A DNA stretch of 63,707 nucleotides, filler included. It is 6 parts of 6 records of this genome, joined end to end, with 100 filler letters (N's around TTAATTAATTAA, not from the genome) between each part and the next. Parts side by side here need not be neighbours in the genome. Positions count along the whole stretch, not along the records: positions 1 to 8,741 come from SRR31147125_14104; 5 more parts are not named here. One strand, written 5' to 3'. Positions 684 through 51,786 of the stretch are shown piece by piece. Under the pieces are notes generated by a model, which had not been told where the DNA came from, ran no database searches, and saw only the letters and a program-made list of their open reading frames with translations. A program made the position numbers and the translations under genes. The first letter of the stretch is position 1. The number at the start of each line of letters is the position of its first letter.

Positions 684-1394
684 ATGTCCTTAAGTGTGTA
701 TGCAGAAACTACTGCAGGCAATGTACGTAGCGACAACGAAGATTATGTTATAGCAGATAATAATAATAAAATATTTATTATTGCAGATGGTGTTGGAGGC
801 AATCAGGCTGGAGAAATTGCAAGTAAATTTGTTGCAACAGCAATTTATCAATTTTTATCCGATGATTTAACCAAAAATACCAAAGAAAATCTGAATTCCA
901 TTCTTGTTCAAATTAACAAAGATCTAATTTCCAAGTCCGAAAATGATCCCTTACTAATGGGGATGAGCACTACATTAGTATTTTCATTAATTATAGAAGA
1001 AAGTTTTTTAATTGGGAATATTGGCGATTCACGTGGTTATCTATTTCGAAATGGCAAACTCACCCAAATCACAAAAGACCATAGCGTTGTTCAGGAATTG
1101 TTAGACTCAGGAGTAATAAATGAAGAGGAGGCTTTTAATCATCATTTGAAGCATATGATCACCATGGCATTAGGAAACAATACTGTTGAACCTGATTTTT
1201 ATGAGAGTGAATTTCGAAAAGGTGATATTTTAATTCTTTGTTCCGATGGTTTGTCAGATATGGTAACCGACCTTGAGATTGAATCGATTTTAAATATAAA
1301 TGAAACACCTAAAGCAAAACTTAAAATGCTTTCAAATAAAGCTTTGGAAAATGGAGGTTTTGATAACATTTCAATTATCCTAATAAATAAATAG
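684..1394 (+). CDS. PP2C-family (Stp1/PrpC-like) Ser/Thr protein phosphatase
   Basis: Motifs R..NED, IADGVGG, MSTT, NIGDSRGY, TKDHS, LCSDGL and GGFDNIS. Confidence 0.95.
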   Translation: MSLSVYAETTAGNVRSDNEDYVIADNNNKIFIIADGVGGNQAGEIASKFVATAIYQFLSDDLTKNTKENLNSILVQINKDLISKSENDPLLMGMSTTLVFSLIIEESFLIGNIGDSRGYLFRNGKLTQITKDHSVVQELLDSGVINEEEAFNHHLKHMITMALGNNTVEPDFYESEFRKGDILILCSDGLSDMVTDLEIESILNINETPKAKLKMLSNKALENGGFDNISIILINK

Positions 1395-1398
1395 TATT

Positions 1399-2622
1399 AT
1401 GAGTTTAGAGGGACAACAAGCATTTCAGATCCAGAAGGAACTTGGAGGCGGTGGATTTGCTACAGCTTTTAAAGCACTTGTTATTGATCCACGAATTTTT
1501 AAAAACTGGGGATGTAAGGATACGGTTGTTTTAAAAGTTCCAAACGATGAAGACAGCGCTATTTCATTAAGTAAGGAAATAGAAATTAACAATGCTCTTA
1601 AAGTTCTGTGTAATAAGGAAGAATTAGAATATTTATGTGAAGTTTATGGTTCATATTCACTCAATACCAATTTTGGTTCTAAGTTGGTTATGGTTATGGA
1701 GTTTATGCCTGAAGGTAACTTAAGAAATAAAATTCAGAATAAACTTTGCGACTTAAATAATACATTACAAATTTTAAAGGAGATTTTACAAGGATTAAGT
1801 ATTGTCCATAAACATAAAATATTACACAGAGATATAAAACCCGAAAATATTCTTTTCAAAAAAAACAGGGCAAGAATAACTGATTTAGGAGTTGGTAAAG
1901 CCATGCATGATCAGGAATCTACCAAAACTATCGCAGGGACTTTATTTTACATGTCCCCGGAAATGTTATTAAATAAAAAAGGATACACTTACAATGTTGA
2001 TATTTGGTCGGTAGGTGTAATGTTACACGAAATGCAATTTGGATGTTTGCCATTTGATATAAAATATTCTGATCCTCAGGGTGTAGTTGTCTCTAAAATT
2101 GTATCTGCTGAAATTTATAAAAAACCGGATAATTCTGATATTCCAACAGGTCTTAATGCTATTCTGAAAAAAGCGCTTGACAAAGATTCTCAGAAAAGAT
2201 ATCAGACAGCAAACGAAATTATTGATGATATTATAAAATTTGAGCATTCGATAATTAAGGAACGTGAAGATTATAAGGAGTTTATAATAAAACGGAATAG
2301 TGGGAAGCATGATGAAGCAATTGTACTCATTAATAATTTGATTTCTCAATTTAAAGAGTGTAGCGATTTGTATTATGAATTAGGATGTATTTACAATCGG
2401 CTGGCAAGTTACGATAAAGCAGTTAATTCTTTCAAAGCAGGAATAGAATATATTCCTGAATGTGGAATTTTGCATTTGGAAACCGGAAAGGCATTAAGTA
2501 AAACTAATGCCGAATTAGAAGCAATAACCTATTTGAATAATGCTATTGAACTTGGACTCTCCAAAAGAAATGAAATAATAGCTAAAACAATTATCAGTAA
2601 CATTAAAAAACAACAAAAATGA
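1399..2622 (+). CDS. Hanks-type Ser/Thr protein kinase with C-terminal TPR-like repeats
   Basis: LGGGGFATAFKA, VVLK, HRDIKPEN, DLG, GT..YMSPE and DIWSVG; C-terminal helical repeats (LYYELGCIY..., LHLETGKAL...). No TM segment. Confidence 0.93.
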   Translation: MSLEGQQAFQIQKELGGGGFATAFKALVIDPRIFKNWGCKDTVVLKVPNDEDSAISLSKEIEINNALKVLCNKEELEYLCEVYGSYSLNTNFGSKLVMVMEFMPEGNLRNKIQNKLCDLNNTLQILKEILQGLSIVHKHKILHRDIKPENILFKKNRARITDLGVGKAMHDQESTKTIAGTLFYMSPEMLLNKKGYTYNVDIWSVGVMLHEMQFGCLPFDIKYSDPQGVVVSKIVSAEIYKKPDNSDIPTGLNAILKKALDKDSQKRYQTANEIIDDIIKFEHSIIKEREDYKEFIIKRNSGKHDEAIVLINNLISQFKECSDLYYELGCIYNRLASYDKAVNSFKAGIEYIPECGILHLETGKALSKTNAELEAITYLNNAIELGLSKRNEIIAKTIISNIKKQQK

Positions 2623-3077
2623 GCTCGCCTTTGGAGGATATTGAACTGGATGTTAGGAATTATATGAATGAGAATGTTGATCTCAAAAGTGAATTGGAAG
2701 ATTGTAAGCACGAAAAAGTGAAACAACACAGAAAATTACTTCTTGGGATATTGGAAGTTGTTGATTCTATGGAAAATAGATTTGAGGGATTTACAAAAGA
2801 AGAACAAAACCTGAGCGACGAAACTAAAACGTGGGTAAAGAAATTCAGGATTAGTTATAAAAAGATAATCCGATTATTAAAAGAAGAAAATGTAGTTGCA
2901 ATTGAAACAAATATTGGTCAGAAGGTAAATCCAGATTGGCATCAAATAATCGACACATTACAAATAGAGGAAGGTGAAGAAAATGCAATAAGCGAAGTAC
3001 ACCAAAAAGGATATTTACTAAAAGGAAAATTACTTAGAGAATCAACAGTCACAATAATAAAAAATAGTATAACATGA
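2619..3077 (+). CDS. grpE: GrpE-like nucleotide exchange factor (short, divergent)
   Basis: Coiled coil followed by LLxxLEVVDSME and GQKVNPDWHQII...EVHQKGYLLKGKLLRESTV, the GrpE beta-domain pattern. ATGA overlaps with both neighbours. Confidence 0.85.
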   Translation: MSSPLEDIELDVRNYMNENVDLKSELEDCKHEKVKQHRKLLLGILEVVDSMENRFEGFTKEEQNLSDETKTWVKKFRISYKKIIRLLKEENVVAIETNIGQKVNPDWHQIIDTLQIEEGEENAISEVHQKGYLLKGKLLRESTVTIIKNSIT

Positions 3078-5444
3078 AAATAGGAATTGACTTAGGAACA
3101 ACAAATTCAGTAGTAGCCATTGTTGAAACAAAAGGAACACGAATTTTAGACAATAAAGAGGGAGAACAAATGACCCCTTCGGTTGTAGCAGGGAAAAAGG
3201 GGGAAATTATAGTTGGTTCTGTTGGAAGGAAAAGGTTAGTAATGGATCCGTTAAACACTATTTATTCGGTTAAACGATTAATGGGGAGAGGCTTCAAAGA
3301 TGACGAAGTTAAAAAAATGATTAGTGATGTACCCTATAAAATTATCAGACCTCAAAACGGAACTGAAGAAAGTTTATCCATAATGTTAAATGGCAGAGAA
3401 TATACACCAATTGAAATTTCATCGGCGATTTTAAAAAAAATAAAAGATGATGTTGAATTTCGGGTAGGAGAGGAAGTTAAAGATGCTGTAATTACGGTTC
3501 CTGCATATTTTTCTGAGATACAGAAAAGAGCAACAATGGAAGCAGGTAAAATGGCAGGACTTAATGTAATGCGAATAATCGATGAGCCAACGGCGGCGGC
3601 TATTTCTTATGGTATTGTTGAAGAAGCAGAAACCGATGAACCCAAAATGGCTTTGGTTTTCGATTTGGGCGGAGGTACTTTCGATATTTCTGTGATAGCA
3701 TTGTCCGGGGGATCTACTGTACAATTAAACCTGGAAGGAGATATGTGGTTGGGCGGAGATAATTTTGATCAGGTAATAATTGACCATTTAATAGAAAAGA
3801 TTAAGGAAGAGGAGAATGTTGATGTTCGGAATGATTCCAAAATGATGGCTGTTATAAAAAGAGAAGCCCAAAATGCGAAGGAAACATTGTCACATTCGAG
3901 AAGTGCCGATATTATTATTGAAGGAAGAGACCTGGATTTTGAGATAGAAATTACCCGGGAGCAGTTTGAAAACTGGATAGAGCCCTTAATCGTCAAATGT
4001 CAGAACCTGGTTGATAAGGCAATTCTGGGAGCCGGATTCGAAGGTGCACAAGACATTGATATTGTAATAATGGCCGGAAATTCAACATTAATCCCGGCAG
4101 TTCAGCAAAGCATGGAGGCAAAATTTGGATTGGAGAAAGTAAAGAGGAAATTGCATCCAAAATTATGTGTTGCCGATGGTGCAGCAAAAGCAGCAGCAAT
4201 ATGGCCGGAAGATAGTCGGCAATGCATAAGATGTAATACAACAAACGCTGTAAATGAAAAAAAATGTACCAAATGCGGATTTAATTTTGTTGAAGAAGAA
4301 TCAGGTCAGCTGGCATTTTCATACGGGATAGAACAAATAGGTGATAGGTTTAATATTTTTTATGAAAAAGGAACGCCATATCCCATTAAACCCGAAGATC
4401 AAGTTACCAAAACTGTAAATACCAATTTTAATAATCAACGTATGATATTGGTTGCAATTTATGGTGGAGAGCATGAAAAAGTTTCACAAAATGAAAAGCA
4501 AGGTGAAGTGTTTGCTGTTTTACCACATGGGCTCCCTAATGGAGCCGGAGTAAAAAATAAAACTCTGGATAAATAAGGATGGATTATTTGAACTGCAAAC
4601 CATGCTTGAAACAGGGGAAACTTTGCAATGCATTATATTAAGAGGACATTCAGATTCAAAAGCTGTTAATGAGGCATATAAAAAGTTAGATGATTATTCC
4701 ACAAAAAAAGCACAAATACCTCATGATGAGCAATTAAAAATTGAGAAAAAGTTAGACGAAGTATTAAACCGACTAATAAATGGAGAATTTGATGATGCTA
4801 TTTCAGAATGTAAAGAAATAAAAATTGAAGAAATTAAGAGTAGTAGTGAGAATGGAACTCCTCCTGCATTTGATTATCAGCAGGCATTAACTATAGTCAA
4901 TAATATAATGGCACAATACGGCGATTATTTATCACCTACTCAAAGGTATAAATTGCAGGATAAAAAGGAAGAATTAACAAATGCAATTAACAGCGGGAAT
5001 ACTGCATTAGGTAAAAAAATTGCTAATGAGGTTTTAAAAATGATTGATGATTTTATGTTTGAGGATATAAATGGACAAAAAATGCCATCTGTTTTTGGCA
5101 TCGTTATAATTTCTCAGAGTTCATTAATGCAGGCTGAACAAAAAGATCCCGCTGAAGTAGGAAGGCAAAGATTAAAAGAAAAAAGAGAAGAAGCGTTGAT
5201 TGAGATTAGGATGGGAAATAAAACAAAAGGCATTATGGATCTGAGTATGGTCATGATGAAAGCTCAAGAAATTATTGGGAAAGGAACATCCGTTCCAGGA
5301 ATGATTAAATGTCCGCATTGTGGAAAAATGACTCCAAGAAATAAACCGACATGTAATTATTGTACGAAACCAATAATTATTGGAGGAGATCAAATAGGTG
5401 CCGAAAGTAGTAGTTACCTGAATAGTTTTACTGTTGGTAGTTAA
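3074..5444 (+). CDS. Non-canonical Hsp70/DnaK-family protein with two zinc ribbons (about 789 aa once the frameshift at A6 4552-4557 is corrected)
   Basis: GIDLGTTNS, TPSVV, VITVPAYF, DEPTAAA, DLGGGTFD, LGGDNFD. Removing one A joins ORFs 3074-4576 and 4602-5444 through VKIKLWINKDGLFELQT, matching the DnaK IEVTFDIDANGIL strand. Confidence 0.88.
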
Positions 5445-5644
5445 TGACTTATGGTGTGTAGCTAATATGAATTGCTAATACAACAAACAATTTAGTAATA
5501 ATCTTCTCCAAAATAATTTAATACTTCAAATATTTGAGATAACGATTATATGTTGGATTGTATTTTTGCCTGGTTGCGACATGAATTTAAAATGAATATA
5601 AGAATGGTTTATTTATTAATCTCTGCTTAAATTTTTTGGAAAGC

Positions 5645-8219
5645 ATGAAAGATCCATTACAAAAAGAATTGACTGAATATGAGATTCTTAATATTCAGGA
5701 AGATGCAAAGAAAGAAGAAATTCAACCGGCTTTTATTAAGGCATTAAAAGGAAAAATAGAACAAAGCGGCAGGAGCGAGAAAAATACTCCTGAATGAAAT
5801 AGAAAGGATAAAAGTTGATTTTTTTCAATACGATAATATATTTTTTGAGAAGCTTGAAAAAGGCTTGGAAATTGAAAAAAAGTTAATCTCGCAAAGAATA
5901 AGTGTCGCAAATGATTGGCAGCTTGAACAATCAAATTTATTTCCTGAGATTAGTTCTATTGCGCATTCACTTAATGTGTTATGGTTTTGGACGGCGTTAA
6001 ATGTATCTGAGAATTGCTTTCAAAAGTTATCAGTAGATCCAGAATCAATTGCAACAGATGATTTAAACAAGTTAGAGAATGCCTGGAATAAAGCTATTGC
6101 CTATTTCACAGCATCTATAAACTCCGATTTATTTTTAAATAATTGGCTAAAAAGCAGGAATTATTTCCAAAATGGATCAACGAATAATATAAAATCAGAA
6201 ATTAAAGAAAAACTAATTCAAAAAGTTGAAAACAAGCTACAATATTATTACGGTAATTCTGTCTCAACAAGCGTTCCCCTTAAGGTTCTTTTTCAAAAAC
6301 TTTTAGACAATTTAAAACTGGAATTAAGTATTTCTAATAAAATTAGAAGTTTAAAGATAAATGTAGATACAAAAATAAATGGTTCGCAAAGAGTTGAAGG
6401 ACTAGGTAAAATATTTCTGGAAGAATACGGTTATATTGAAAAAGTAAGAAATATTATTTCTGATTTAAATTCCGCGAGTAATAATGAAAAAATAAATGAT
6501 TTGTTGATTGCATTATCCCCTTTTGCAAATATTCAATCGTTGGTAAATAAAAAACAGTTTAAAAGTGCACTGGATGAAATTGAAAAACTACCCCAAGCTG
6601 ATAAGACAACACCTGAACTGAAAAAACTTAAACAAGACTCTATTGTAGGATTAGCACGTTTTTGTATTTCAGGAGGTGTTTTAACCGAATTTCTTGAATT
6701 TAAAAATAATTATTTGAAAGCCAGAACTGTTGCTACCAGCAAGGTTGTTCAGATAATTGCAGATGATATTTTTAAGCTGGTTGCTAGTTTAAAAAATGTC
6801 AATCAGGATAAAATGATTGAATTACTTGCATGGGTTAATTCCAATGCTCCGGAGCATAAAAATATACGGCTAAAATTAGCGAATCTTTACCTTGAACGGG
6901 GAATTCAAACCTATAATAAAGGACAAAGAGCTTACGAGAAAGAACCCACAGAAAAGAATAGATTGTTGATGGAGAAAGGATTTGAAGATGCAGAAAAGGC
7001 CAAAAAATTAAATCCTACAGAAAAACGCATCCTTCAAAATCATGATGTCATGAAAAGGGGCGTTAATATTTCTAATCCGGTAATAAGTGAAGCTTCAAAA
7101 AATAATGGGGAAGGTGTTAAATTGCTTAGTCAGGCAAATAACGATTTAAAAGCAGGCAATGTAAACGAGGCTAAAGAAAAAATACAGAAAGCGAAAAGTT
7201 TGTTTGAAGCTGCATTGAAAGTTGAGCCCAACAATAACGTTTTTAAGGATAATAGAAAAATAGCAGTGGATTATCTTCAGCAGATAACTAAAGTTGAAAC
7301 AGATTTAAAAAATCAGCAAAAAGCAAGAAAAGATAACGATGATGGTGTGCTGATTTTAAATGGCTGCCAGAATGATTATGTGAAATATATGCAGGCCAAA
7401 AATACATTAAAACAAATTAAACAAATAAAATTGCCCGATGGCGCGCAATTAAATGCAAAAGGACAAGAACTTTTATCAGAATCGTTGGACACTGTAAATT
7501 CATTGGTTGATAGTTTGAAAAGAAGAATTGAAGAGGCGTTTGATTTTTTTGAATCAGCCCTTGATATGTTTCCCAATAATGAAACGTACAAAAAAAATCG
7601 GGATTATGCTTATGATATGTATGCTGAGGTCCAAACATTTGAAGAAATTATTTACGATAAGCCAGCTAAAAAATTACAAAAAGGATATCCTCAAAATAAA
7701 CCTGCCGGGGGATACTCGTTGAACAAACCAAGAAGTAGTTATACATCTACAACGCCTAAAAGGGATTATTCCCGTAAAAAACCGGCAACCAATTACACCA
7801 AAAAAAGTACACCCAAATATAATCCAGGCAGAAAGAAAACTTACAATTACTCTTCAGCTAAAACAAACTCAACAAAACTTCTTAAAGGTGTAAAAGATGT
7901 TTTTTATTTTATTGTAGGCGCTATTATGTTTTTGCTAGTCATGGTCTTGGCTATGGCTTCTGTTGAGGTGTATAAATTTCTCGATTTATATTTAGATAAA
8001 GGACAGTTTTTAGTATCTGCAGGCAAAATTGCTTTTGCAACCCTTCAAACAATATCATTTTATTTAATTATCATAAAAGGTAGACAGGCGTGGTTATTTA
8101 TATGGTATTTAATCGGCATTGCGGGTATCTGGGAATCAGGATTGGGTATGTTTTGGTTTGTATTGTATTGTATTGGATTTGTAGTCTCTGTTATTCTCTA
8201 TTTTACAACACGGGAGTGA
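5645..8219 (+). CDS. Large membrane-anchored TPR-like protein with a degenerate N-terminal J-like domain (frameshift near 5757-5765)
   Basis: ATG 5645 gives MKDPLQKELTEYEILNIQEDAKKEEIQPAFIKALK. The next frame continues KAAGARKILLNEIERIKVDFFQY into ORF 5865-8219, which has TPR-like repeats, a K/S/T/Y/P-rich linker and about 4 C-terminal TM helices. Confidence 0.7.
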
Positions 8220-8232
8220 TTAAAAATTTATT

Positions 8233-8741
8233 ATGGAATTAAAAATTGATTGTATTTGTAAATATGGTAAAGGTTTACCTTTGGATACCAAAAGATGCCC
8301 CAAATGTGGATTAAACCTGGAAACAATAGCAAAACTTTATAAGTTATCCGGAGATTTAATAGTACAAGGCGATGAATCTTTTAAAGAGAATAAAACTGGC
8401 TTAGCTGTTTCTTTTTACCATGCAGCGCATCATCTTTCAATTATTCCTGAGCCAGAGCCGTTTGTAAAGGCAATTGAAATCTATATAAATGAAAAAAATG
8501 GTAAGCTGGCAGGTGAATTACTGAAGTACTCAAAAATACATTTTCCTGATGAAAAGGTCTGGAATGATCTTGAAAATAGAGTTAATGAATTATTGAATGA
8601 GGAAAATGAAAAAAAGAAACAACAACAAAAAGTAGTTAAAAATTTCCGATTTTTTAAAAATGCTTTTTACGCTTCAATTGGAATATTATTTGTATTAGTA
8701 GTATTCAATTTTACTAAACAATTTTTAATTCCTAACGATGA
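8233..8741 (+). CDS. Zinc-ribbon + TPR-like + transmembrane protein; 3' end cut by the contig end
   Basis: N-terminal CIC...CPKCG, a TPR-like helix pair, a coiled coil, then hydrophobic AFYASIGILFVLVVF. Confidence 0.7.
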
Positions 8742-8841
8742 NNNNNNNNNNNNNNNNNNNNNNNNNNNNNNNNNNNNNNNNNNNNTTAATTAATTAANNN
8801 NNNNNNNNNNNNNNNNNNNNNNNNNNNNNNNNNNNNNNNNN
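8742..8841. other. Artificial contig linker (N44-TTAATTAATTAA-N44)
   Basis: N runs flank a 12-mer that has stops in all six frames; the same linker occurs five times. Confidence 0.97.
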
Positions 8842-9646
8842 GTTCTTATTCATGAATAGTGATAAATTACCTACAGAAGACGAACAATACGCAGCATATA
8901 AAGAAGTTGCTGAAACATTAGCTGGAAAACCAGTAACTATCAGAACGATGGATATCGGTGGAGATAAGGCACTTCCATACATGGAACTTCCTAAAGAGGA
9001 AAATCCATTCCTTGGATATAGAGCACTTAGAGTATCTCTAGATAGAACTGATATGTTTAAAACTCAGCTAAGAGCATTACTAAGAGCGTCAGCTCACGGG
9101 CAAGTTAAAATTATGTTCCCAATGGTAATCTCGTTAGCAGAAATTAGAAAATCTAAAGCCTTATTAGAAGAGTGTAAAGAAGAATTAAGAAATGAAGGAA
9201 TCGCATTTGATGAAGATGTAAAAGTTGGAATCATGATAGAAACTCCTGCATCTGCAATTAGAGCTAGACAGTTCGGAAAAGAAGTAGACTTCTTCTCTAT
9301 TGGAACTAATGACTTAACTCAGTATACACTTGCAGTAGATAGAGGAAATGAAAATATTTCTGACCTTTATGATTCATATAACCCAGCAGTACTTGAAGCG
9401 GTCAAATTAGCTATCGACGGAGCACATGCAAATGGAATTACATGTTCAATGTGTGGAGAGTTCGCTGGAGATGCTAAAGCAACTAAACTATTACTAGGAT
9501 TAGGATTAGATGCATTTTCAATGAGTGCTACATCAATTCCTCAAGTTAAGAAAAATGTTAGAGAGTCTGATTGTGTGCAAGCTAAGAAATTTGCAGAAGA
9601 GATGTTAGCTCTTGATACAGCTGAAGAGATAAAAAATAACTTATAA
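8842..9646 (+). CDS. ptsI: PTS enzyme I, C-terminal PEP-binding domain (5'-truncated)
   Basis: IRTMDIGGDK, EENPFLGYRALR, MIETP, FFSIGTNDLTQY, CGEFAGD. Confidence 0.95.
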
Positions 9647-9675
9647 TTATATATTAAATTAGCCATCCCTGTTTG

Positions 9676-9724
9676 GAGGGCACTGAAAAAGGGCATAACT
9701 TTATATGCCCTTTTTTAGTGCTCT
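9676..9724 (+). terminator. Intrinsic terminator hairpin after ptsI
   Basis: gagggcactgaaaaagggcata-acttta-tatgcccttttttagtgctct: stem with A and T tracts on either side. Confidence 0.75.
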
Positions 9725-10112
9725 AATCCTTTGCGACGAGTTTCTTCATTGTATCAATGGTCTCAATAACATTTTCTTTAGTGTAAGATATAATATTTTT
9801 AGCTAAAATAGGAGATCTGGCAGGATATCTTCCTAGTTTTAAAATTCACCACAAACAACTCTATTCAAATAAATTAAAATATATATTAGGTATATTTCAT
9901 ATTAGATGGTACAATAAGGAGTTACTGTTTATTTAAGAATGATGTTATGCGAACATCATTTGAGTAAATCGAGCATTTGTTGAAAAAACAGCTTAATTTA
10001 TTTAGATTATAGTTTTTTGAAGTTGAGACATTTAATAATAGAATCCTCTATTTATTCAAGATATTATAATTTTTAATATAACTGTAAAATATAATATCTT
10101 TGGGAGGAAAAA

Positions 10113-11063
10113 TTGAAAAAAATAGTTAAAAAGGGATCTAGGCCAAAAACTAGAGTGCTTAATGTACAGGAAGATTCAGCTTTAATGGAGTTTTTATTAG
10201 AAAAGTTAGATGGAAAAAGTAGAAATAACGTAAAAAGATTATTAGGTGAAAGACAGGTTCTAGTAAATGGAGCAATTCAAACTCACTTTAAAACACCATT
10301 AGCAAAAGGCGATAAAGTAGAGATACTATTTGGAAAAGTAAGAGGGCAAGATATCAAGGGTCTTAAAATAGTATTTGAAGACGAAGATATCATAGTTGTT
10401 GACAAAGAATCAGGTCTGTTATCAATGGCAACTGACAAAGAGAGAAATAAAACAGCATACGAGATGCTAAAAAATCACGTAAAAGCTAGAGATGCTGAGA
10501 ATAAAATATTCATAGTACATAGATTAGACAGAGATACATCTGGTGTAATGATATTTGCTAAAAATGCAGAGATGCAACAGAAATTACAATCAAACTGGTC
10601 TGACATAGTTAGAGAGAGAACATATGTAGCAGTTGTAGAGGGAAAAGTTAAGAAGGATAAAGACACTATAACTTCTTACTTAAAAGAAAACTCGGCATTT
10701 GTTAGTTTCTCAAGTGATGTACCTGTAGAGGGTGGAAAACTAGCTGTGAGTAATTATAAGGTAGTAAAGAGAAGTCCAGCATTTACAATGGTAGAGGTAA
10801 AACTAGATACAGGAAGAAAGAACCAAATCCGTGTACATATGAAGGAGTTAGGTCATCCAATAATTGGTGACTCGAAATATGGTTCAAGTAAAGATCCAAT
10901 TAGAAGATTAGGACTTCACGCGAAAAATATTATATTCAAACATCCGGCTACTGGAAAAATAATTGAATTTGCATCTCCTGTACCTGTTAGATTTAATGAG
11001 ATGTTTAAAAGTACTAAAAATAAGACTAAAACTAAGAAAAAAAGAGATAGATTTTTTACATAA
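10113..11063 (+). CDS. RluA/RluD-family RNA pseudouridine synthase with S4-like N-terminus
   Basis: VHRLDRDTSG catalytic motif, TGRKNQIRVH, HPIIGDSKYG; GGGAGG RBS before a TTG start. Confidence 0.93.
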   Translation: MKKIVKKGSRPKTRVLNVQEDSALMEFLLEKLDGKSRNNVKRLLGERQVLVNGAIQTHFKTPLAKGDKVEILFGKVRGQDIKGLKIVFEDEDIIVVDKESGLLSMATDKERNKTAYEMLKNHVKARDAENKIFIVHRLDRDTSGVMIFAKNAEMQQKLQSNWSDIVRERTYVAVVEGKVKKDKDTITSYLKENSAFVSFSSDVPVEGGKLAVSNYKVVKRSPAFTMVEVKLDTGRKNQIRVHMKELGHPIIGDSKYGSSKDPIRRLGLHAKNIIFKHPATGKIIEFASPVPVRFNEMFKSTKNKTKTKKKRDRFFT

Positions 11064-11065
11064 AC

Positions 11066-11102
11066 AAAGGCTGTAATCCAAGATGATGGATTACAGCCTT
11101 TT
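11066..11102. terminator. Bidirectional terminator between convergent genes
   Basis: aaaggctgtaatcca-agatga-tggattacagcctttt. Confidence 0.8.
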
Positions 11103-11118
11103 AAATTTTCCAAGATAT

Positions 11119-11886
11119 TTATATTTGTTCTTCGACTATAACTTCCATGGCCTGATTGTCGTTAAATGGAATAGAAGCTAGTTTGATAAGGGTAACTGCC
11201 ATAATTATTTTTACAAAGGGACTAGTAATTAGACCTAAGAGATTGATGGTTTTAAAAATTGTAATATTAGAGGTGAAATTCTTTAAGATCATTCCAGAAT
11301 ACCCTATTATATTATATGGTAAAAGTATAAAAAATACTTTGTCAAAATTTCCTTTAACTAAATTGGAACTTAAATCAAAAAGTTCTTGTTTTTCTCCTAA
11401 CACAATTGGAATTAATGGAGCAAAAGCAAATTTAGCCTGAATTAATAAAAGAAGTACTAAAGCAGAAATTTGGCTTACTGATCTTTGAATGGGAGATTTA
11501 TTAAGAAAGCTCGCAATAAGAATGATAATAGGAATAATCCCAATTAATCCAAGTTTAATATAATTAACAAAATAGTTCCAAATAAATGACCTACATTTAG
11601 CGAATAAATTTGATAGAACAAATTTCTCTTTAGAAGAAATATTTCGAATGCATTGAAGCACAGTAACACTGATTAATCCATTTATAATAGGAATTACTAT
11701 TACAACTAGCAACGTAATATAGATATTCGTTCTGTCCCCTGTTTTCCGTAGCTCCTTTACAAAATCATAGAAATAATTTAGTAAAAAAGATATTCCAATA
11801 AGAAGCAAAAGCGCTATATTTCCTTTTACATAATTAAATGTTGTAGCATAAATGTCCCTAACACTAATCTTGTTTTCTTTGTTCAT
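11119..11886 (-). CDS. Hypothetical multi-pass membrane protein
   Basis: 255-aa ORF with about 6 hydrophobic segments and an upstream RBS-like GGGGA/CAGGG. Confidence 0.7.
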   Translation of the reverse strand: MNKENKISVRDIYATTFNYVKGNIALLLLIGISFLLNYFYDFVKELRKTGDRTNIYITLLVVIVIPIINGLISVTVLQCIRNISSKEKFVLSNLFAKCRSFIWNYFVNYIKLGLIGIIPIIILIASFLNKSPIQRSVSQISALVLLLLIQAKFAFAPLIPIVLGEKQELFDLSSNLVKGNFDKVFFILLPYNIIGYSGMILKNFTSNITIFKTINLLGLITSPFVKIIMAVTLIKLASIPFNDNQAMEVIVEEQI

Positions 11887-12142
11887 TTTCCCTGTCCCCT
11901 TTTGTATTGTTTATTATGTTGATTTGTTTAAATTTTCCCTTAATCGTACTAATCTACTTATTTTAATACCTGTTCAAAATTCCCTGAATAAAATTAGTTT
12001 TATTTTCACAATATTTTGCACTATTAAATTTATGAGCTTTTGCTAACTCAAACTTAAGTTAGGAATATTTATCCCTTGTTTCAAGATTTGTGAGTAAGCA
12101 CTCACGTAATGCAATATGCTCCTGAAATTTGAGCTTTTGTAT

Positions 12143-13122
12143 TTATATTTGTTTTTTTATTATAATCTCTAGTTTGTCTTTATTTGCAACTAGTTTAATT
12201 CTCCCACCTATAGGAAGAGTGACCATAGGCATTGTATGTCCAAAATCTAATCCTGCTACAATAGGAATATTTAATGGTTTTAGGTTTCTTTCTATCATTT
12301 TTTTAATATCTCCAAATGATATCTTACTGTTACTTTCAAAGCGCCCAAACAAAATTCCAATTATATTTTTTGAATTTTCTTGATAATACAATGACTTAAA
12401 TAATCGCTCTAGATTAATTAAACTAGTTTCATTATCTTCAATAATTAATATAGTATTTTGGGGTATCAATAGATATTTCGTTCCAAAGAGCAAAGACAGT
12501 GTGCTTAAATGCCCACCTATAATTTGTCCTTCTGCTTCTCCCTCATTTATAATTGAATAACCTTCGTTTTCATAAAACTCCCTATTCTCTTGGTCAAAAT
12601 ACCATTGGTCTTCACTCCAAAGTTTTGAAGGGATAAGTTTATATTCTTCAGCTTCTAGAAAATTTTTAGATAAATACTCTAGAATATACTCACTATTTTT
12701 TATCATTCCTAAAATTGAAAAATTAGGTCCATAATATGTGACTAAATTACTTTTAGCATATATTGCATTACATAAAGTTGTAATGTCTGAAAACCCACAA
12801 AAAATTTTAGGATTATTTCGAATTAAATTATAATCAATTTTATTAAGTAACTCAATTGAATTACTCCCCCTCTTGATGCAAAAATAGCCTTAACTTTCTT
12901 ATCCGAAAAAGCCTCATGAAGGTCATAGATCTTTTCCTCTATAGAAATATCTCTATTTTTATTATCACTTTTATAGTATTTTGAATATGTAACATTGAAG
13001 CCTAGTGCTTTGAGCTTATTTTCAGCTTCTTCAAGAATATCATCGGATATAAATTCTAAACTTCCTGATGGAGAAATAATTCTAATTTCATCTCCAATTT
13101 TTATTTTTGTAGGTAGTGGCAT
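12143..13122 (-). CDS. S66-family (LD-carboxypeptidase/MccF-like) peptidase, split by a frameshift at C5 12866-12870
   Basis: Adding one G restores SRGGSNSIELLNKIDYNLIRNNPKIFCGFSDIT. The Ser-Glu-His triad is in FSDIT, IIEDN and DFGHT. Confidence 0.85.
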
Positions 13123-15710: not shown

Positions 15711-15900
15711 AATTTCCCCTTTCTAGTCCCTTCAGTTATACTACACCATTTTAAATTATAAATCTTTATTTTTAGAAAACCCTTAAAGTGTAAAATGTAA
15801 ATTTGATGGAAGAAGATAACTAATAGTTATTGATTAGTTAATAGAAACTTGAACCTAAAGAAGATTGATATTTAGAGGTATGAAATTTAAAAAAACAAGA

Positions 15901-15929
15901 TTGACTGATCAGTCTAGTGGTGGTATACT
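15901..15929 (+). promoter_or_regulatory. Sigma70 promoter overlapped by the perfect palindrome GACTGATCAGTC (candidate TetR operator)
   Basis: TTGACT (15901-15906), 17-nt spacer, TG-n-TATACT (15924-15929); palindrome at 15903-15914. Confidence 0.75.
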
Positions 15930-15982
15930 TAATCATAAGATAAGAGTAGTGGCTTGTTATTTAATTGATTAAGGAGGAGGAA

Positions 15983-17455
15983 ATGAGTTCAAAAGCAGCT
16001 TTAAATGATAAAAATAAAAAGTATGTAGGCCAAAGCTTAAATATGAATACTAGACTTAATGTTGGAGAATTAAATCTAGAGATAGAATTGAAGATGCTAA
16101 GGAAGTTATACACAGGGAATGCCTACCCTAGTTTGGCTGAAAGACAGTTGGTTCTAGCAAATATAAAAAAGATACTAATAGAAAATCATGAGATTTTTTC
16201 GAATGCGCTAAGTAAAGATTATGGTTATCGAAGTGAGTTCGATTCATTTGTATCTGACTTTATACCAGTTATCAGTTATGTTAAATATATAAGTAAAAAA
16301 ATAAAGAAATGGATGAAAAAAGAAAAACGACATACACCGTTAATGTTAATTCCATCAAATATCGAAGTTAGATATCAGCCCTTAGGCGTTGTTGGCGTTG
16401 TGGTTCCTTGGAATTTTCCAATAAACCTAGCACTTAGTCCGGCTATAAGCGCTATTGGTGCAGGTAATAAAGTAATGGTTAAGATGAGTGAATTTACACC
16501 ATATACCAATAGAGAGCTGATAAAGGCATTTGAACCACTGAAAGATCATATTAGGTTTTATGAAGGAGAGGTAGAGGTGGCCTCTAAATTCACAAGTCTC
16601 CCATTTGATCATTTATTATTCACAGGTTCAACAAATGTAGGAAGAATAGTCGCAAAAGCAGCAGCACAAAATCTAACTCCAATTACTCTTGAGCTTGGAG
16701 GAAAATCACCGATCATTATCACTCAAAATGCTAATCTAGATATAGCCATTGATAACATAATACTGGGGAAAACTCTTAACTCAGGGCAGATATGTGTTGC
16801 TCCCGACTATCTATTTATTCATAGTTCATTACATGACCGATTTATCAAACTATTTGTTAGTAAAGTTATAACAATTTATAGTGAGAGTCAGGAAGATGAT
16901 CTTACCCATATTATTAGTAAACATCACTATGATAGATTGACTAGTTATATAGAGGATGCAAAATCAAAAGGAGCAAAAGTAATTAAAACAATAGAACTAA
17001 CGAAGTCTGAGAAATTAACAAGACTATATCCAACACTTGTTACAGATGTAAGTGATGATATGAAAATCATGCAGGAGGAGATTTTCGGCTCTCTATTACC
17101 TGTAATGTGTTATAATGATTTGGCTGAAGTATATGACTATATTCAAAAAAAACCAAGACCATTGGCACTATATATTATGTCCAATAATAGAGCTGAGGCT
17201 GATGAGATTATAGATGAAACCCATAGTGGAGGAGTTTGCGTAAATGACACCATTGTGCATGTTGGTGCAGACGATGCTCCTTTTGGTGGGATTGGTGATT
17301 CCGGAATGGGTCAATATCATGGACGAGAAGGATTTTTAACTTTCTCAAAGGTGAAAACAGTGGTTCTATCATCAGGGATTATCCCTAAAAATAGAATATT
17401 GATGAGAAATAAAGATCTAGTATTAAAATTACTTAAAAGGGTGTATTTGCGATGA
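15983..17455 (+). CDS. Aldehyde dehydrogenase (ALDH3/coniferyl-aldehyde dehydrogenase-like)
   Basis: PWNFP, FTGS, LELGGKSP, NSGQICVAPDY, EEIFG, PFGGIGDSGMG; AAGGAGG RBS. Confidence 0.92.
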   Translation: MSSKAALNDKNKKYVGQSLNMNTRLNVGELNLEIELKMLRKLYTGNAYPSLAERQLVLANIKKILIENHEIFSNALSKDYGYRSEFDSFVSDFIPVISYVKYISKKIKKWMKKEKRHTPLMLIPSNIEVRYQPLGVVGVVVPWNFPINLALSPAISAIGAGNKVMVKMSEFTPYTNRELIKAFEPLKDHIRFYEGEVEVASKFTSLPFDHLLFTGSTNVGRIVAKAAAQNLTPITLELGGKSPIIITQNANLDIAIDNIILGKTLNSGQICVAPDYLFIHSSLHDRFIKLFVSKVITIYSESQEDDLTHIISKHHYDRLTSYIEDAKSKGAKVIKTIELTKSEKLTRLYPTLVTDVSDDMKIMQEEIFGSLLPVMCYNDLAEVYDYIQKKPRPLALYIMSNNRAEADEIIDETHSGGVCVNDTIVHVGADDAPFGGIGDSGMGQYHGREGFLTFSKVKTVVLSSGIIPKNRILMRNKDLVLKLLKRVYLR

Positions 17456-18012
17456 ATGATAAAAAAGAAAGAATTATTGCAGCGGCATTGGAACTGTTTA
17501 CGGAGAAGGGGATTGACTCAACTTCTACTGCGTCTATTGCAAAAAAAGCAGGTATTGGAACAGGAACGTTGTTTCATTATTTCAGTAATAAAGAAGCACT
17601 TGTACATGAATGTTTTGCATCTATTAAGATGAAAATACGTGAAACTTTATTGGAAATTCAATCAGAAGATAATCCTGATCTACCTGAAAACTACTGGCGA
17701 GCTACAATAAATTGGTATTTGGAAAATAGGAATGAAATGACTTTTTTGTGTATCTATCAAAATGATCCAAAAGTTAATAATGGAAAGAGTCTCTCTGTAA
17801 TAACAGGCTTATCTGACTATATAATTGAATTTTTTAGAATGAGAAAAGAGCAAGGTAATATTAGGGATTTTTCACCGGAATATATGCTTCTACTAGCCCA
17901 TAACTCCACAATGTTAGCAGCACAATATCTTATAGAAAATCCTGAAACTGATAAAGAATATTTTATTAAACAGAGTTTAGAGTTGTTTTGGAATGGTATT
18001 AGAGTTAAGTAG
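17452..18012 (+). CDS. TetR/AcrR-family transcriptional regulator
   Basis: N-terminal HTH (IIAAALELFTEKG...IAKKAGIGTGTLFHYFSNKEAL); ATGA overlap with the ALDH gene. Confidence 0.93.
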   Translation: MNDKKERIIAAALELFTEKGIDSTSTASIAKKAGIGTGTLFHYFSNKEALVHECFASIKMKIRETLLEIQSEDNPDLPENYWRATINWYLENRNEMTFLCIYQNDPKVNNGKSLSVITGLSDYIIEFFRMRKEQGNIRDFSPEYMLLLAHNSTMLAAQYLIENPETDKEYFIKQSLELFWNGIRVK

Positions 18013-18063
18013 AACAAACAAAACCCTCAAGCCTAAAAGCTTGAGGGTTTTGTTTGTTCTACT
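18008..18063. terminator. Bidirectional terminator with a 25-bp perfect stem
   Basis: agtagaacaaacaaaaccctcaagc-ctaaaa-gcttgagggttttgtttgttctact between convergent genes. Confidence 0.8.
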
Positions 18064-18158
18064 ATAGGAAAGTATAGATTTACTAAGTTTTGTGTGAAAA
18101 CTTAAATAATATTTACACTCAAAAAGTTAGACTTTCTTTTGAACTTTATTATTTCAAG

Positions 18159-19418
18159 TTACTCAGTACTTTGATAGACATGATTTCGTCTAACACTTAT
18201 ATACGAGAAGAGAATAATTGAGATTATTCCACCAGAGATAGGCAGAGCATAACTTGGTAATTTATCTAATAACAGACCTGATAAAATCAGACCAATGGGA
18301 CTTATTATTTTAGCTCCCATAATTGAGATACTGATTACTCGTCCTCTCAGTTCACTGGGTACCTCAGATTGGAGAAAATACATGATCGGTATATCGATGA
18401 AAGCAACGACTATTCCCACTGCAAACATCAAACTGGAGTAATACACAAGATACCCTGTAGTTTCCAAACTAATAAAGTTAGTAAAAACGGGAAGACCGAT
18501 AGCTATCAGAATCAAAGATAATGTGATTTGTGCTGATTTAGGAGGTCTTATAGATCGAGCCTTATTCATAGCATAATTAGTTGCGCCAGCACCTATCAAT
18601 ATTCCTATTGGAAAGAAGCTCTCCACAACTCCATAGACTTTTGGATCTAGTTGCAAGACTTGGTTAAGGATATAAGGCAAAGGAACTATGATAGATAAAG
18701 ACATCAAAAAATTCATTGCAGTTAGTAAATATATAGTTAGAGTCAACTCTTGATTTGTCTTGATATATTTAACACCCTCCATTAACTCCTCTATAAAATT
18801 GAATGAACTTTTTTGTTTCTCAATATTCTTTTTATTTAAATTAAAATCAATTAAACTTTCAAAGATAGCTGATATAAAAAATGAAATTCCGTTTATCAAT
18901 ATTAACAACCTAATATCAATTAAAACAAATATAATTCCACCTATTACAGGACCTCCTATTCTTCCGATTGAACCGACAGCTTTGCTTACTACATTTATTT
19001 TTATCAGACTATCGTCACTTACCAACCTGGGTTTTGCAGCATCAAATGTAACCTCAAATACTGTGGTTAATCCAGTAGTTAAAAATGTACTGGTGTATAT
19101 GATCGATAGGTTTAATCCTTTGTATTTGTCGATAAAAAATAGAACAATAAACATTATCCCGTTTAATAGATCCATTGTAATAATCAGATTTTTCTTCTTA
19201 AACCTATCTGCCATAACTCCAGCTATTGGGTTAAATATTAGTGTAGCTAAAATTCCTGACATCAGTGTAATTGAAAAATTCATTCCAGAATTTGTCAGTT
19301 TTAAGACATATAGTCCCATTGTGAAGGTGTAAATTGTTGAGCCTAAAACTGATATTAACGTTCCTCCGGAAAAAAGTGAAATATTCAGTTTTTCCCCTTT
19401 TAAAGCATTCATTGACAT
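18159..19418 (-). CDS. MFS transporter (DHA3/macrolide-efflux-like)
   Basis: About 12 TM segments, motif A (GVMADRFKKK), and QSEVPSELRGRV. Confidence 0.88.
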   Translation of the reverse strand: MSMNALKGEKLNISLFSGGTLISVLGSTIYTFTMGLYVLKLTNSGMNFSITLMSGILATLIFNPIAGVMADRFKKKNLIITMDLLNGIMFIVLFFIDKYKGLNLSIIYTSTFLTTGLTTVFEVTFDAAKPRLVSDDSLIKINVVSKAVGSIGRIGGPVIGGIIFVLIDIRLLILINGISFFISAIFESLIDFNLNKKNIEKQKSSFNFIEELMEGVKYIKTNQELTLTIYLLTAMNFLMSLSIIVPLPYILNQVLQLDPKVYGVVESFFPIGILIGAGATNYAMNKARSIRPPKSAQITLSLILIAIGLPVFTNFISLETTGYLVYYSSLMFAVGIVVAFIDIPIMYFLQSEVPSELRGRVISISIMGAKIISPIGLILSGLLLDKLPSYALPISGGIISIILFSYISVRRNHVYQSTE

Positions 19419-24944: not shown

Positions 24945-25044
24945 NNNNNNNNNNNNNNNNNNNNNNNNNNNNNNNNNNNNNNNNNNNNTTAATTAATTAA
25001 NNNNNNNNNNNNNNNNNNNNNNNNNNNNNNNNNNNNNNNNNNNN
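24945..25044. other. Artificial contig linker
   Basis: N44-TTAATTAATTAA-N44. Confidence 0.97.
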
Positions 25045-34599: not shown

Positions 34600-34699
34600 N
34601 NNNNNNNNNNNNNNNNNNNNNNNNNNNNNNNNNNNNNNNNNNNTTAATTAATTAANNNNNNNNNNNNNNNNNNNNNNNNNNNNNNNNNNNNNNNNNNNN
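34600..34699. other. Artificial contig linker
   Basis: N44-TTAATTAATTAA-N44. Confidence 0.97.
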
Positions 34700-39829: not shown

Positions 39830-39929
39830 NNNNNNNNNNNNNNNNNNNNNNNNNNNNNNNNNNNNNNNNNNNNTTAATTAATTAANNNNNNNNNNNNNNN
39901 NNNNNNNNNNNNNNNNNNNNNNNNNNNNN
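39830..39929. other. Artificial contig linker
   Basis: N44-TTAATTAATTAA-N44. Confidence 0.97.
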
Positions 39930-51686: not shown

Positions 51687-51786
51687 NNNNNNNNNNNNNN
51701 NNNNNNNNNNNNNNNNNNNNNNNNNNNNNNTTAATTAATTAANNNNNNNNNNNNNNNNNNNNNNNNNNNNNNNNNNNNNNNNNNNN
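51687..51786. other. Artificial contig linker
   Basis: N44-TTAATTAATTAA-N44. Confidence 0.97.

Follow-up and report, generated by a model that had tools for sequence, protein, structure and literature searches.

An apparently undescribed, conserved Hsp70 system associated with a Ser/Thr kinase and a PP2C phosphatase

The window analyzed here, a DNA stretch of 63,707 nt made of contigs joined end to end, carries at positions 684 to 8741 of the plus strand six genes in one orientation, which encode a PP2C phosphatase, a Ser/Thr kinase with a TPR, a GrpE-like protein, a zinc-ribbon Hsp70, a J-like/TPR/transmembrane (TM) protein, and a zinc-ribbon/TPR/TM protein (gene 6). This cluster is a kind of dedicated Hsp70 system, itself a known kind, and is apparently an undescribed one, in which a conserved, private Hsp70 is linked to a kinase and a phosphatase. 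The locus probably, though far from certainly, represents the 5' two-thirds of a conserved accessory operon that combines the private Hsp70 with eukaryote-like phospho-signaling and, in complete copies, with an AAA+ protease. The best reading of such an operon is a phosphorylation-gated Hsp70-to-protease module. The order and spacing of the six genes given in the original prediction, which had been made from the sequence alone, were borne out by the list of open reading frames (ORFs) and by Pfam. The PP2C and kinase genes are separated by 4 nt, ATGA overlaps occur at 2619-2622 and 3074-3077, and a 13-nt gap precedes gene 6. The features of the locus are as follows.

684..1394, plus strand: PP2C-type Ser/Thr phosphatase, 236 aa (Pfam PP2C_2, 4e-14)
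1399..2622, plus strand: Hanks-type Ser/Thr kinase with C-terminal TPR, 407 aa (Pfam Pkinase, 7e-46; TPR_8, 3e-6)
2619..3077, plus strand: short GrpE-like nucleotide-exchange factor, 152 aa (Pfam GrpE, 3e-21)
3074..5444, plus strand: zinc-ribbon Hsp70 paralog, about 789 aa without the extra A (Pfam HSP70, 4e-119, model positions 2-375)
4552..4557, plus strand: A6 run in which a surplus A breaks the Hsp70 frame of the deposited sequence (from a read-based contig and homologs)
5645..8219, plus strand: protein with a J-like (HPD-less) domain followed by a conserved all-alpha domain, TPRs, a basic low-complexity region, and about four C-terminal TM helices
8233..8741, plus strand: zinc-ribbon/TPR-like/TM protein (gene 6), cut at the contig end (from its translation and phmmer matches to L001 and L013)
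8742..8841, no strand: artificial contig joint (N44 + TTAATTAATTAA + N44), where the locus stops only because the contig stops

Conservation of the neighborhood was assessed with a profile (A1) of the beta substrate-binding segment of the zinc-ribbon Hsp70, which retrieved 13 loci from species-representative genomes and another 28 from metagenome contigs. The 41 loci formed 31 groups at 90% Hsp70 identity, and neighbors were counted on the same strand from -9 to +10 kb, using only those groups whose contig reaches far enough to be evaluable. The kinase was present in 23 of 24 evaluable groups, the PP2C in 18 of 25, the GrpE-like gene, immediately upstream of the Hsp70 gene, in 24 of 28, and the J-like/TPR gene, downstream of the Hsp70 gene, in 20 of 23. 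The zinc-ribbon/TPR protein of the gene-6 family was found in 14 of 20 groups and an AAA+ ATPase in 15 of 18, and a second Hsp70-like gene of any kind, including the copy seen in L042, occurred in 10 of 26. The same gene order in 31 nonredundant loci indicates that the arrangement is not due to chance. Homologs keep the kinase, phosphatase, GrpE, and J-like/TPR neighbors, as the original prediction required. The proposed six-gene unit held in that its genes are conserved; however, the unit is larger than supposed, since in complete loci it also takes in the AAA+ protease, often a second Hsp70 consisting of a nucleotide-binding domain only, and BON and LysM domains on the gene-6 family. Similarly, the proposed link to a kinase and a phosphatase stands for the kinase, whereas the PP2C is optional. 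Beyond the system's own families, only three others recur in at least three groups, namely, an unrelated ABC ATPase, a sigma-54 activator, and a Clp_N-like protein (3 groups). The sigma-54 enhancer-binding protein, which carries a GAF domain, is encoded directly upstream of the kinase in 4 groups (L056:4136-5734, with homologs in L008, L057, and L063), which hints that the operon may be sigma-54 dependent and signal induced in these four lineages.

In the Hsp70 at the center of the cluster, the linker between the nucleotide-binding domain and the beta substrate-binding domain holds one zinc ribbon, and a helical lid is followed by a second zinc ribbon at the C terminus. Both zinc ribbons (CxxC...CxxC) are visible in the translation, and the Pfam HSP70 match is confined to the nucleotide-binding domain. 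In full-length zinc-ribbon relatives, this match likewise spans only model positions 1-377 (366-407 bits). Across 25 aligned Hsp70 rows, hardly any variation is seen in the ATPase motifs or the zinc-ribbon cysteines. Among the best 120 matches listed for the N-terminal piece of the Hsp70, the first 69 are mostly proteins of 757-870 aa (322-831 bits, 37-76% identity), many of which carry zinc-ribbon Pfam families, and from rank 70 onward the matches are canonical-size DnaK proteins scoring about 300 bits. A phylogenetic tree of 60 rows, which included Escherichia coli DnaK, HscA, and HscC and was rooted on YegD as the most distant row, agreed with the original view of the window Hsp70 as divergent. 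DnaK, HscA, and HscC formed a clade (Shimodaira-Hasegawa-like approximate likelihood ratio test [SH-aLRT], 99) that excludes the window Hsp70 and all 35 zinc-ribbon rows. The window Hsp70 fell within a core group of 30 rows (SH-aLRT, 85), in which it was sister to L042 (100), then to two Bacteroidales-type loci (100), and then to three Clostridia-type loci (93). On its sequence, the Hsp70 is an extra paralog with a clade of its own and intact ATPase motifs.

The original prediction had also held the cluster to be a conserved unit distinct from the housekeeping heat shock operon, and this view was upheld. An unusual form of the organism's own housekeeping DnaK-GrpE operon is a highly improbable reading of the locus, in spite of the GrpE-then-Hsp70 order and the absence of any other Hsp70 within the 63.7-kb window. 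In addition to its position outside the DnaK/HscA/HscC clade, the Hsp70 scored far under the NCBIfam DnaK cutoffs (PRK00290 and TIGR02350; 374 versus 648 and 358 versus 823 bits), although the 500-aa N-terminal piece used for this comparison cannot by itself reach a whole-protein cutoff, and it was also far below the HscA cutoff. The GrpE-like protein is over the Pfam GrpE cutoff (76.4 versus 25.8 bits) but under every NCBIfam GrpE equivalog cutoff, the best score being 55 versus 200 bits. All five carrier genomes searched encode a full-length canonical Hsp70 (747-878 bits) alongside the zinc-ribbon one (366-407 bits). Moreover, the system is carried by only about 1% of sampled relatives. Among 151 genomes sampled from the order of G003, the A1 profile had a true match in one, five other matches of 36-38 bits being frames of DnaK size, and it matched 4 of 301 sampled genomes of the class of G001. 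All 13 genome loci come from metagenome-assembled genomes, labeled Clostridia, Oscillospiraceae, Symbiobacteriaceae, Bacteroidales, Deltaproteobacteria, Planctomycetota, Phycisphaerae, Acidobacteria, Ectothiorhodospiraceae, Anaerolineaceae, and Christensenellales. All carriers found are uncultured, which may explain why the cluster has been missed so far.

Additional Hsp70-like genes accompany the zinc-ribbon Hsp70 in some loci. In the nearest relative, L042, the zinc-ribbon Hsp70 gene precedes a tandem copy of itself (L042:9568-10290) with degenerate ATPase motifs, in which, for example, the phosphate-1 Asp and the Thr-Thr pair are replaced, and this copy may be a pseudo-ATPase partner. In its place, the window has a 200-nt gap. 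Second Hsp70-like genes of another kind lie between the Hsp70 and J-like genes in L005 (11026-12324), L010 (11111-12913), L056 (11108-12961), and L060 (1444-3171). Their products contain a nucleotide-binding domain only, with a SEC-C motif at the end and sometimes TPRs, and they form their own clade (SH-aLRT, 98).

The J-like protein departs from canonical Hsp70 partners. In the window, a weak Pfam DnaJ match (0.003; 18 bits versus a cutoff of 27.8) falls on a 50-aa ORF at 5645-5797, and the large ORF of the gene has Pfam TPR matches. All of the homologs looked at share the N-terminal motif [M/V]KDPLQ followed by ..PYEIL. A profile built from the first 80 aa of 18 homologs matched the E. coli DnaJ J-domain structure at 1.3e-6 and 23 PDB sequences at an E value of ≤0.001, which are J-domain proteins without exception. 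An hhalign comparison of this profile with E. coli DnaJ gave a probability of 96.2% and put a deletion of about 12 residues precisely where DnaJ has its HPD loop, and none of the 18 aligned homologs has an HPD tripeptide between helices II and III. As far as its sequence goes, the domain is a J-like relative of the J domain that has lost the HPD loop and is not a J domain proper. Because this loop is deleted, the domain is predicted to be unable to use the canonical HPD trigger, and the full Hsp70 cycle originally ascribed to the cluster is therefore doubtful. AlphaFold2 modeled the N-terminal 330 aa of the J-like protein as all-alpha, with a predicted local distance difference test score of 92.3 and a predicted template modeling score of 0.88. 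A Foldseek search of this model against the PDB gave no match at an E value of ≤0.001 among 144 listed. Look-alikes in the ESM Atlas (best score, 0.89) belong to unnamed actinobacterial clusters and some DnaJ-plus-TPR clusters and serve as leads only. The J-like marker region was found in 915, 400, and 199 representatives at E values of ≤1e-3, ≤1e-10, and ≤1e-30, respectively, among 1.84 billion. It starts at or near the N terminus in the 150 matches listed, in which the tail length is highly variable and the total length ranges from 230 to 1386 aa. Relatives of gene 6 contain the Pfam domains TPR, BON, LysM, and Zn_Ribbon, and in L013 and L060 the BON and LysM domains follow a TM segment. The presence of BON and LysM in this family points to possible cell wall contact.

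Complete loci end in an AAA+ gene of one of two kinds, encoding either a ClpA-like Hsp100 or a fusion of Clp-D2, FtsH, and M41 domains. The Hsp100 partners are double-ring proteins of about 790-800 aa that align with ClpA in one piece. All five examined lack the ClpB M domain, with a gap over E. coli ClpB residues ~408-525, and a comparison with NCBIfam ClpB gave 607 bits, below the cutoff of 1232. In addition, all five have IGF, LGF, or IGV at the position of the ClpP-docking IGL of ClpA, where ClpB has a gap. These features mark the Hsp100 partner as a predicted ClpA-class unfoldase with a putative ClpP-docking loop. The M41 fusions, which are 1,030-1,375 aa long, combine a Clp-D2-type AAA domain, an FtsH-type AAA domain, and peptidase M41. 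Both Walker sets are present, and HExxH is intact in all five fusions that reach the domain, three others being cut by contig ends. The M domain of ClpB couples it to DnaK. Like the DnaK-DnaJ-GrpE system with ClpB, the present cluster uses the same protein families and encodes GrpE before Hsp70; in contrast to that system, its J relative lacks HPD, and its Hsp100 partner lacks the M domain and has the ClpA-type ClpP loop. Because of this absence of the M domain and presence of the ClpA-type loop, the output is likely to be degradation rather than refolding, and both AAA+ kinds point in the same direction.

The signaling pair also appears to be functional. Conservation over 20 kinase rows reaches at least 90% for the catalytic Lys, alpha-C Glu, HRD, D-L-G, and SPE, and no TM segment was seen in the kinase, which points to a cytoplasmic protein. 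The PP2C passes the NCBIfam Stp1/IreP cutoff (245 versus 230 bits), and the metal-binding Asp motifs are kept in 16 aligned rows. From these residues, the Hanks kinase and the PP2C are both apparently active. Phosphorylation might conceivably switch the Hsp70.

Comparison with known systems revealed partial resemblances. The E. coli analogies drawn originally, namely, hscC beside djlC/djlB and yegD beside yegI/pphC/yegL, hold by annotation. Like the present Hsp70, HscC is a nonhousekeeping Hsp70 encoded beside its own J-type partners, and the hscC locus also encodes a Sel1 (TPR-like) protein, YbeT. DjlB and DjlC are membrane anchored. However, HscC lies inside the DnaK/HscA clade, and its locus has no zinc ribbons, GrpE, kinase, PP2C, or AAA+ partner, whereas the J relative of the present cluster is HPD-less. 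The E. coli yegD region, a triad of the TerY-P type, resembles the cluster in that, by annotation, an Hsp70-family gene adjoins a Ser/Thr kinase gene (yegI) and a PP2C gene (pphC), with yegL encoding a vWA protein. In contrast, YegD has 450 aa and is the most distant row of the tree, and the E. coli genes do not form one co-oriented operon and include no GrpE, J-like, or AAA+ gene. Furthermore, no vWA family recurs in the 31 groups, in which the sole vWA seen is part of a surface protein of 1888 aa flanking L006, so the cluster does not correspond to a TerY-P triad.

Two described classes of conflict system share more of the parts. According to the accessible text of PMC7159879 (Kaur, Burroughs, Iyer, and Aravind, 2020), theme 2 of the GAP1-N2 GTPase-centric conflict systems contains Hsp70 and GrpE, sometimes with an Hsp70 reduced to the nucleotide-binding domain and a DnaJ or TPR partner, and a separate theme contains a kinase, a PP2C, and a vWA protein. 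Going by that text, the theme 2 systems have Hsp70, GrpE, a second Hsp70, and DnaJ/TPR in common with the present cluster, but GAP1-N2 systems are defined by GAP1, one or two TRAFAC GTPases, and FNIII-repeat proteins (PMC7159879). Among the 31 groups of the present cluster, none of the recurring families is a GTPase, GAP1, or FNIII family. A link to the FtsH ternary systems was considered and dropped, since those, as far as they are described in the same text, need MoxR and vWA (PMC7159879). In the portions available of PMC11090510 (Bell et al., 2024), type III CoCoNuT systems are described as having Hsp70-like nucleotide- and substrate-binding units together with a PP2C and a fusion of a Ser/Thr kinase with a zinc ribbon. 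There, the Hsp70-like unit is fused or linked to McrB/McrC homologs, the ATPase motifs are degenerate, and the kinase is that of the vWA triad (PMC11090510), whereas the present cluster, set against those portions, has intact ATPase motifs, GrpE, and a J relative. No description of the six-gene layout was found in full-text searches of the literature, in agreement with the initial view that no characterized system has it, although the supplementary data of PMC7159879 or PMC11090510 may still list it. In a term search of two reviews and one paper on DnaK duplication, their available text mentions unexplained DnaK paralogs and makes no mention of the operon.

In the phosphorylation-gated Hsp70-to-protease module, the TPR/zinc-ribbon proteins would form a scaffold, membrane bound in many members, for choosing a client or sensing a cue, a task that in some members could involve the cell wall through BON/LysM. 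The kinase/PP2C pair would set the on/off state by phosphorylating the chaperone or adaptors, and the HPD-less J-like domain would tether Hsp70 without canonical triggering. Hsp70, recycled by its own GrpE, would then pass clients to the AAA+ protease for unfolding and degradation. Extra Hsp70 paralogs are common in bacteria, and their roles are an acknowledged open question, as stated in the accessible part of a 2026 review (PMC13580251). The paralog here comes with a defined, conserved parts list, comprising an exchange factor, an HPD-less J relative, TPR/zinc-ribbon scaffolds, a kinase/phosphatase pair, and a protease. It raises the questions of how an Hsp70 is driven without the HPD motif, of Ser/Thr phosphorylation as a control of a bacterial chaperone, and of whether an Hsp70 can choose the substrates of a Clp- or FtsH-type protease. 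A role in defense, if confirmed, would add a chaperone-based mechanism to bacterial immunity.

Several observations weigh against this module. Of the evaluable groups, 7 of 25 have no PP2C and 4 of 28 have no GrpE, and L009/L064 retains just the Hsp70 and the J-like/TPR gene, which indicates that the kinase/PP2C gate is not obligatory. What points to a hand-over from Hsp70 to the protease is gene linkage alone. No AAA+ homolog was found in the 63.7-kb window, as would be expected if it lies beyond the contig end. In the Hsp70 tree, support for the core zinc-ribbon clade is moderate (85), five peripheral rows, two of which are TIR fusions, fall outside it, and three rows are wrong-frame translations that produce long branches, although the clades cited above are untouched by them. 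Finally, a frame break in the J-like gene means that this copy could be defective.

The frame breaks bear on another explanation, namely, that the locus is a decaying, nonfunctional remnant in this genome, which is improbable. The deposited sequence has two frame breaks within 8 kb. The Hsp70 is split into two frames, 3074-4576 and 4554-5444, whereas full-length relatives have an uninterrupted frame across the break position. The J-like gene is broken between 5757 and 5766, with 5645-5797 in one frame and an open frame from 5760 that continues as that of 5865-8219. The breaks were checked against a read-based contig of run X1 (15,114 nt; depth, 64.6), which covers 684-8740 and probably derives from the source sample of the window, so that it tests the assembly and does not represent an independent organism. 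This contig omits one letter at 4552, within the A6 run, which restores a single Hsp70 frame of about 789 aa. The Hsp70 break is thus an assembly error, and the deposited sequence holds at least one homopolymer error. For the J-like break, the run X1 contig lists no indel, which fits decay. However, its span of 8058 nt versus 8057 nt in the window, with "3 gaps," implies two more inserted letters, the place of which is not given and which would mend the J-like frame if located there. All other genes are open, and their catalytic residues are intact, which also argues against a remnant. The only substitution over the 8 kb is at window position 4046, a G where the run X1 contig has C.

An anti-phage or conflict system, in which the kinase or the TPR arrays would sense an invader and the Hsp70/AAA+ arm would destroy invader or host proteins in a manner resembling abortive infection, is a tentative possibility. 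The patchy distribution noted above, under about ten group labels and yet in so few sampled relatives, is consistent with it, as are the highly variable tail of the J-like protein among the 150 matches listed and the sharing of parts of the kit with described conflict systems, to the extent that these are covered by the accessible text (PMC7159879; PMC11090510). It is also supported by L061, a member that departs from the conserved neighborhood and is nested in the core clade as sister to L046 (SH-aLRT, 90), in which the Hsp70 is fused to TIR_2, and by two further Hsp70-TIR fusions (P0209 and P0240). In the search among longer proteins from which such rows were sought, eukaryotic Hsp70 fusions predominated and few useful prokaryotic rows were obtained. 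In the L061 region (751-12481), the zinc-ribbon Hsp70 with a C-terminal TIR (1093 aa) precedes two more TIR proteins, the first an Asp-protease-TIR protein, as well as a TPR protein and a DUF4062-NACHT STAND NTPase, and the domain content of the region identifies it as a putative immune-type island around a member of the same Hsp70 clade. A bolder version, which is likewise possible but doubtful, is a new class of immune or programmed-proteolysis system. In such a system, the kinase/PP2C pair would arm the zinc-ribbon Hsp70, which, under the guidance of the HPD-less J-like/TPR membrane receptor, would deliver selected invader or host proteins to a dedicated AAA+ protease. The TIR-fused relatives would give this sensor an alternative output arm.

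Against a role in defense, PADLOC-DB 2.0 gave no match for either Hsp70 piece, either J-like piece, or gene 6. The kinase matches there were generic (mad6 and PD-T4-6), and the PP2C had one match, PDC-M21C, at 1e-11. Proximity to defense islands, which the original prediction had raised as a check, was not observed, since of ten flanking proteins from five loci, six belong to ordinary Pfam families (a symporter, PPDK, Rho, AraC, a MalT-like protein, and a surface PKD-vWA protein) and four had no match. No relative was found in IMG/VR. In the plasmid collection, none of 425 matches covers 80% of the query, and only partial DnaK- or HscC-like matches were present. The core includes no classical toxin domain, and the sigma-54/GAF activator upstream in 4 groups suggests induced expression.

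Some of the same observations favor a horizontally moving island for protein quality control or envelope stress, which would clear damaged membrane or cell-wall-proximal proteins under stress reported by the kinase. Transmissible heat resistance loci, which carry ClpK/ClpG and FtsH-like genes, would be similar in kind. Every enzymatic part of the cluster comes from proteostasis (Hsp70, GrpE, the J relative, and Hsp100 or FtsH/M41), TM anchors are present along with BON and LysM on the gene-6 family, and the flanking genes are ordinary; the sigma-54/GAF activator of the 4 groups fits as well. However, general quality control would have no need of an HPD-less J-like adaptor, zinc ribbons, several TPR scaffolds, or a kinase/phosphatase pair, and the TIR-fused member fits poorly. 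The module is very rare even inside one order, and no small heat shock gene or other stress gene is among the three further families that recur in at least three groups. This role is rather unlikely.

The end of the cluster in the window is set by the assembly. Artificial joints of the form N44-TTAATTAATTAA-N44 occur at 8742-8841, 24945-25044, 34600-34699, 39830-39929, and 51687-51786, so that the window consists of six unrelated contigs end to end and gene order across the joints is meaningless. Since the first joint starts at 8742, gene 6 is cut at 8741 and the genes downstream are not its neighbors. The run X1 contig extends about 6.1 kb past 8741. By analogy with the nearest complete relatives, L049-L051, gene 6 is predicted to go on past its TM segment there, with a ClpA-like AAA+ gene of about 2.4 kb after it. 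Rfam and tRNA scans of the window found nothing, and a promoter/terminator scan found fewer sites than in shuffles (33 versus 38.0 and 2 versus 4.5). The ORF opening the next contig (8852-9646) resembles by eye the C-terminal part of a PEP-utilizing enzyme (PtsI-like) and is cut at the contig start. In L001, the Hsp100 gene is followed by three tightly packed, co-oriented genes (15794-19108; 323, 317, and 465 aa), with no Pfam match, which may have been added to the system in that lineage.

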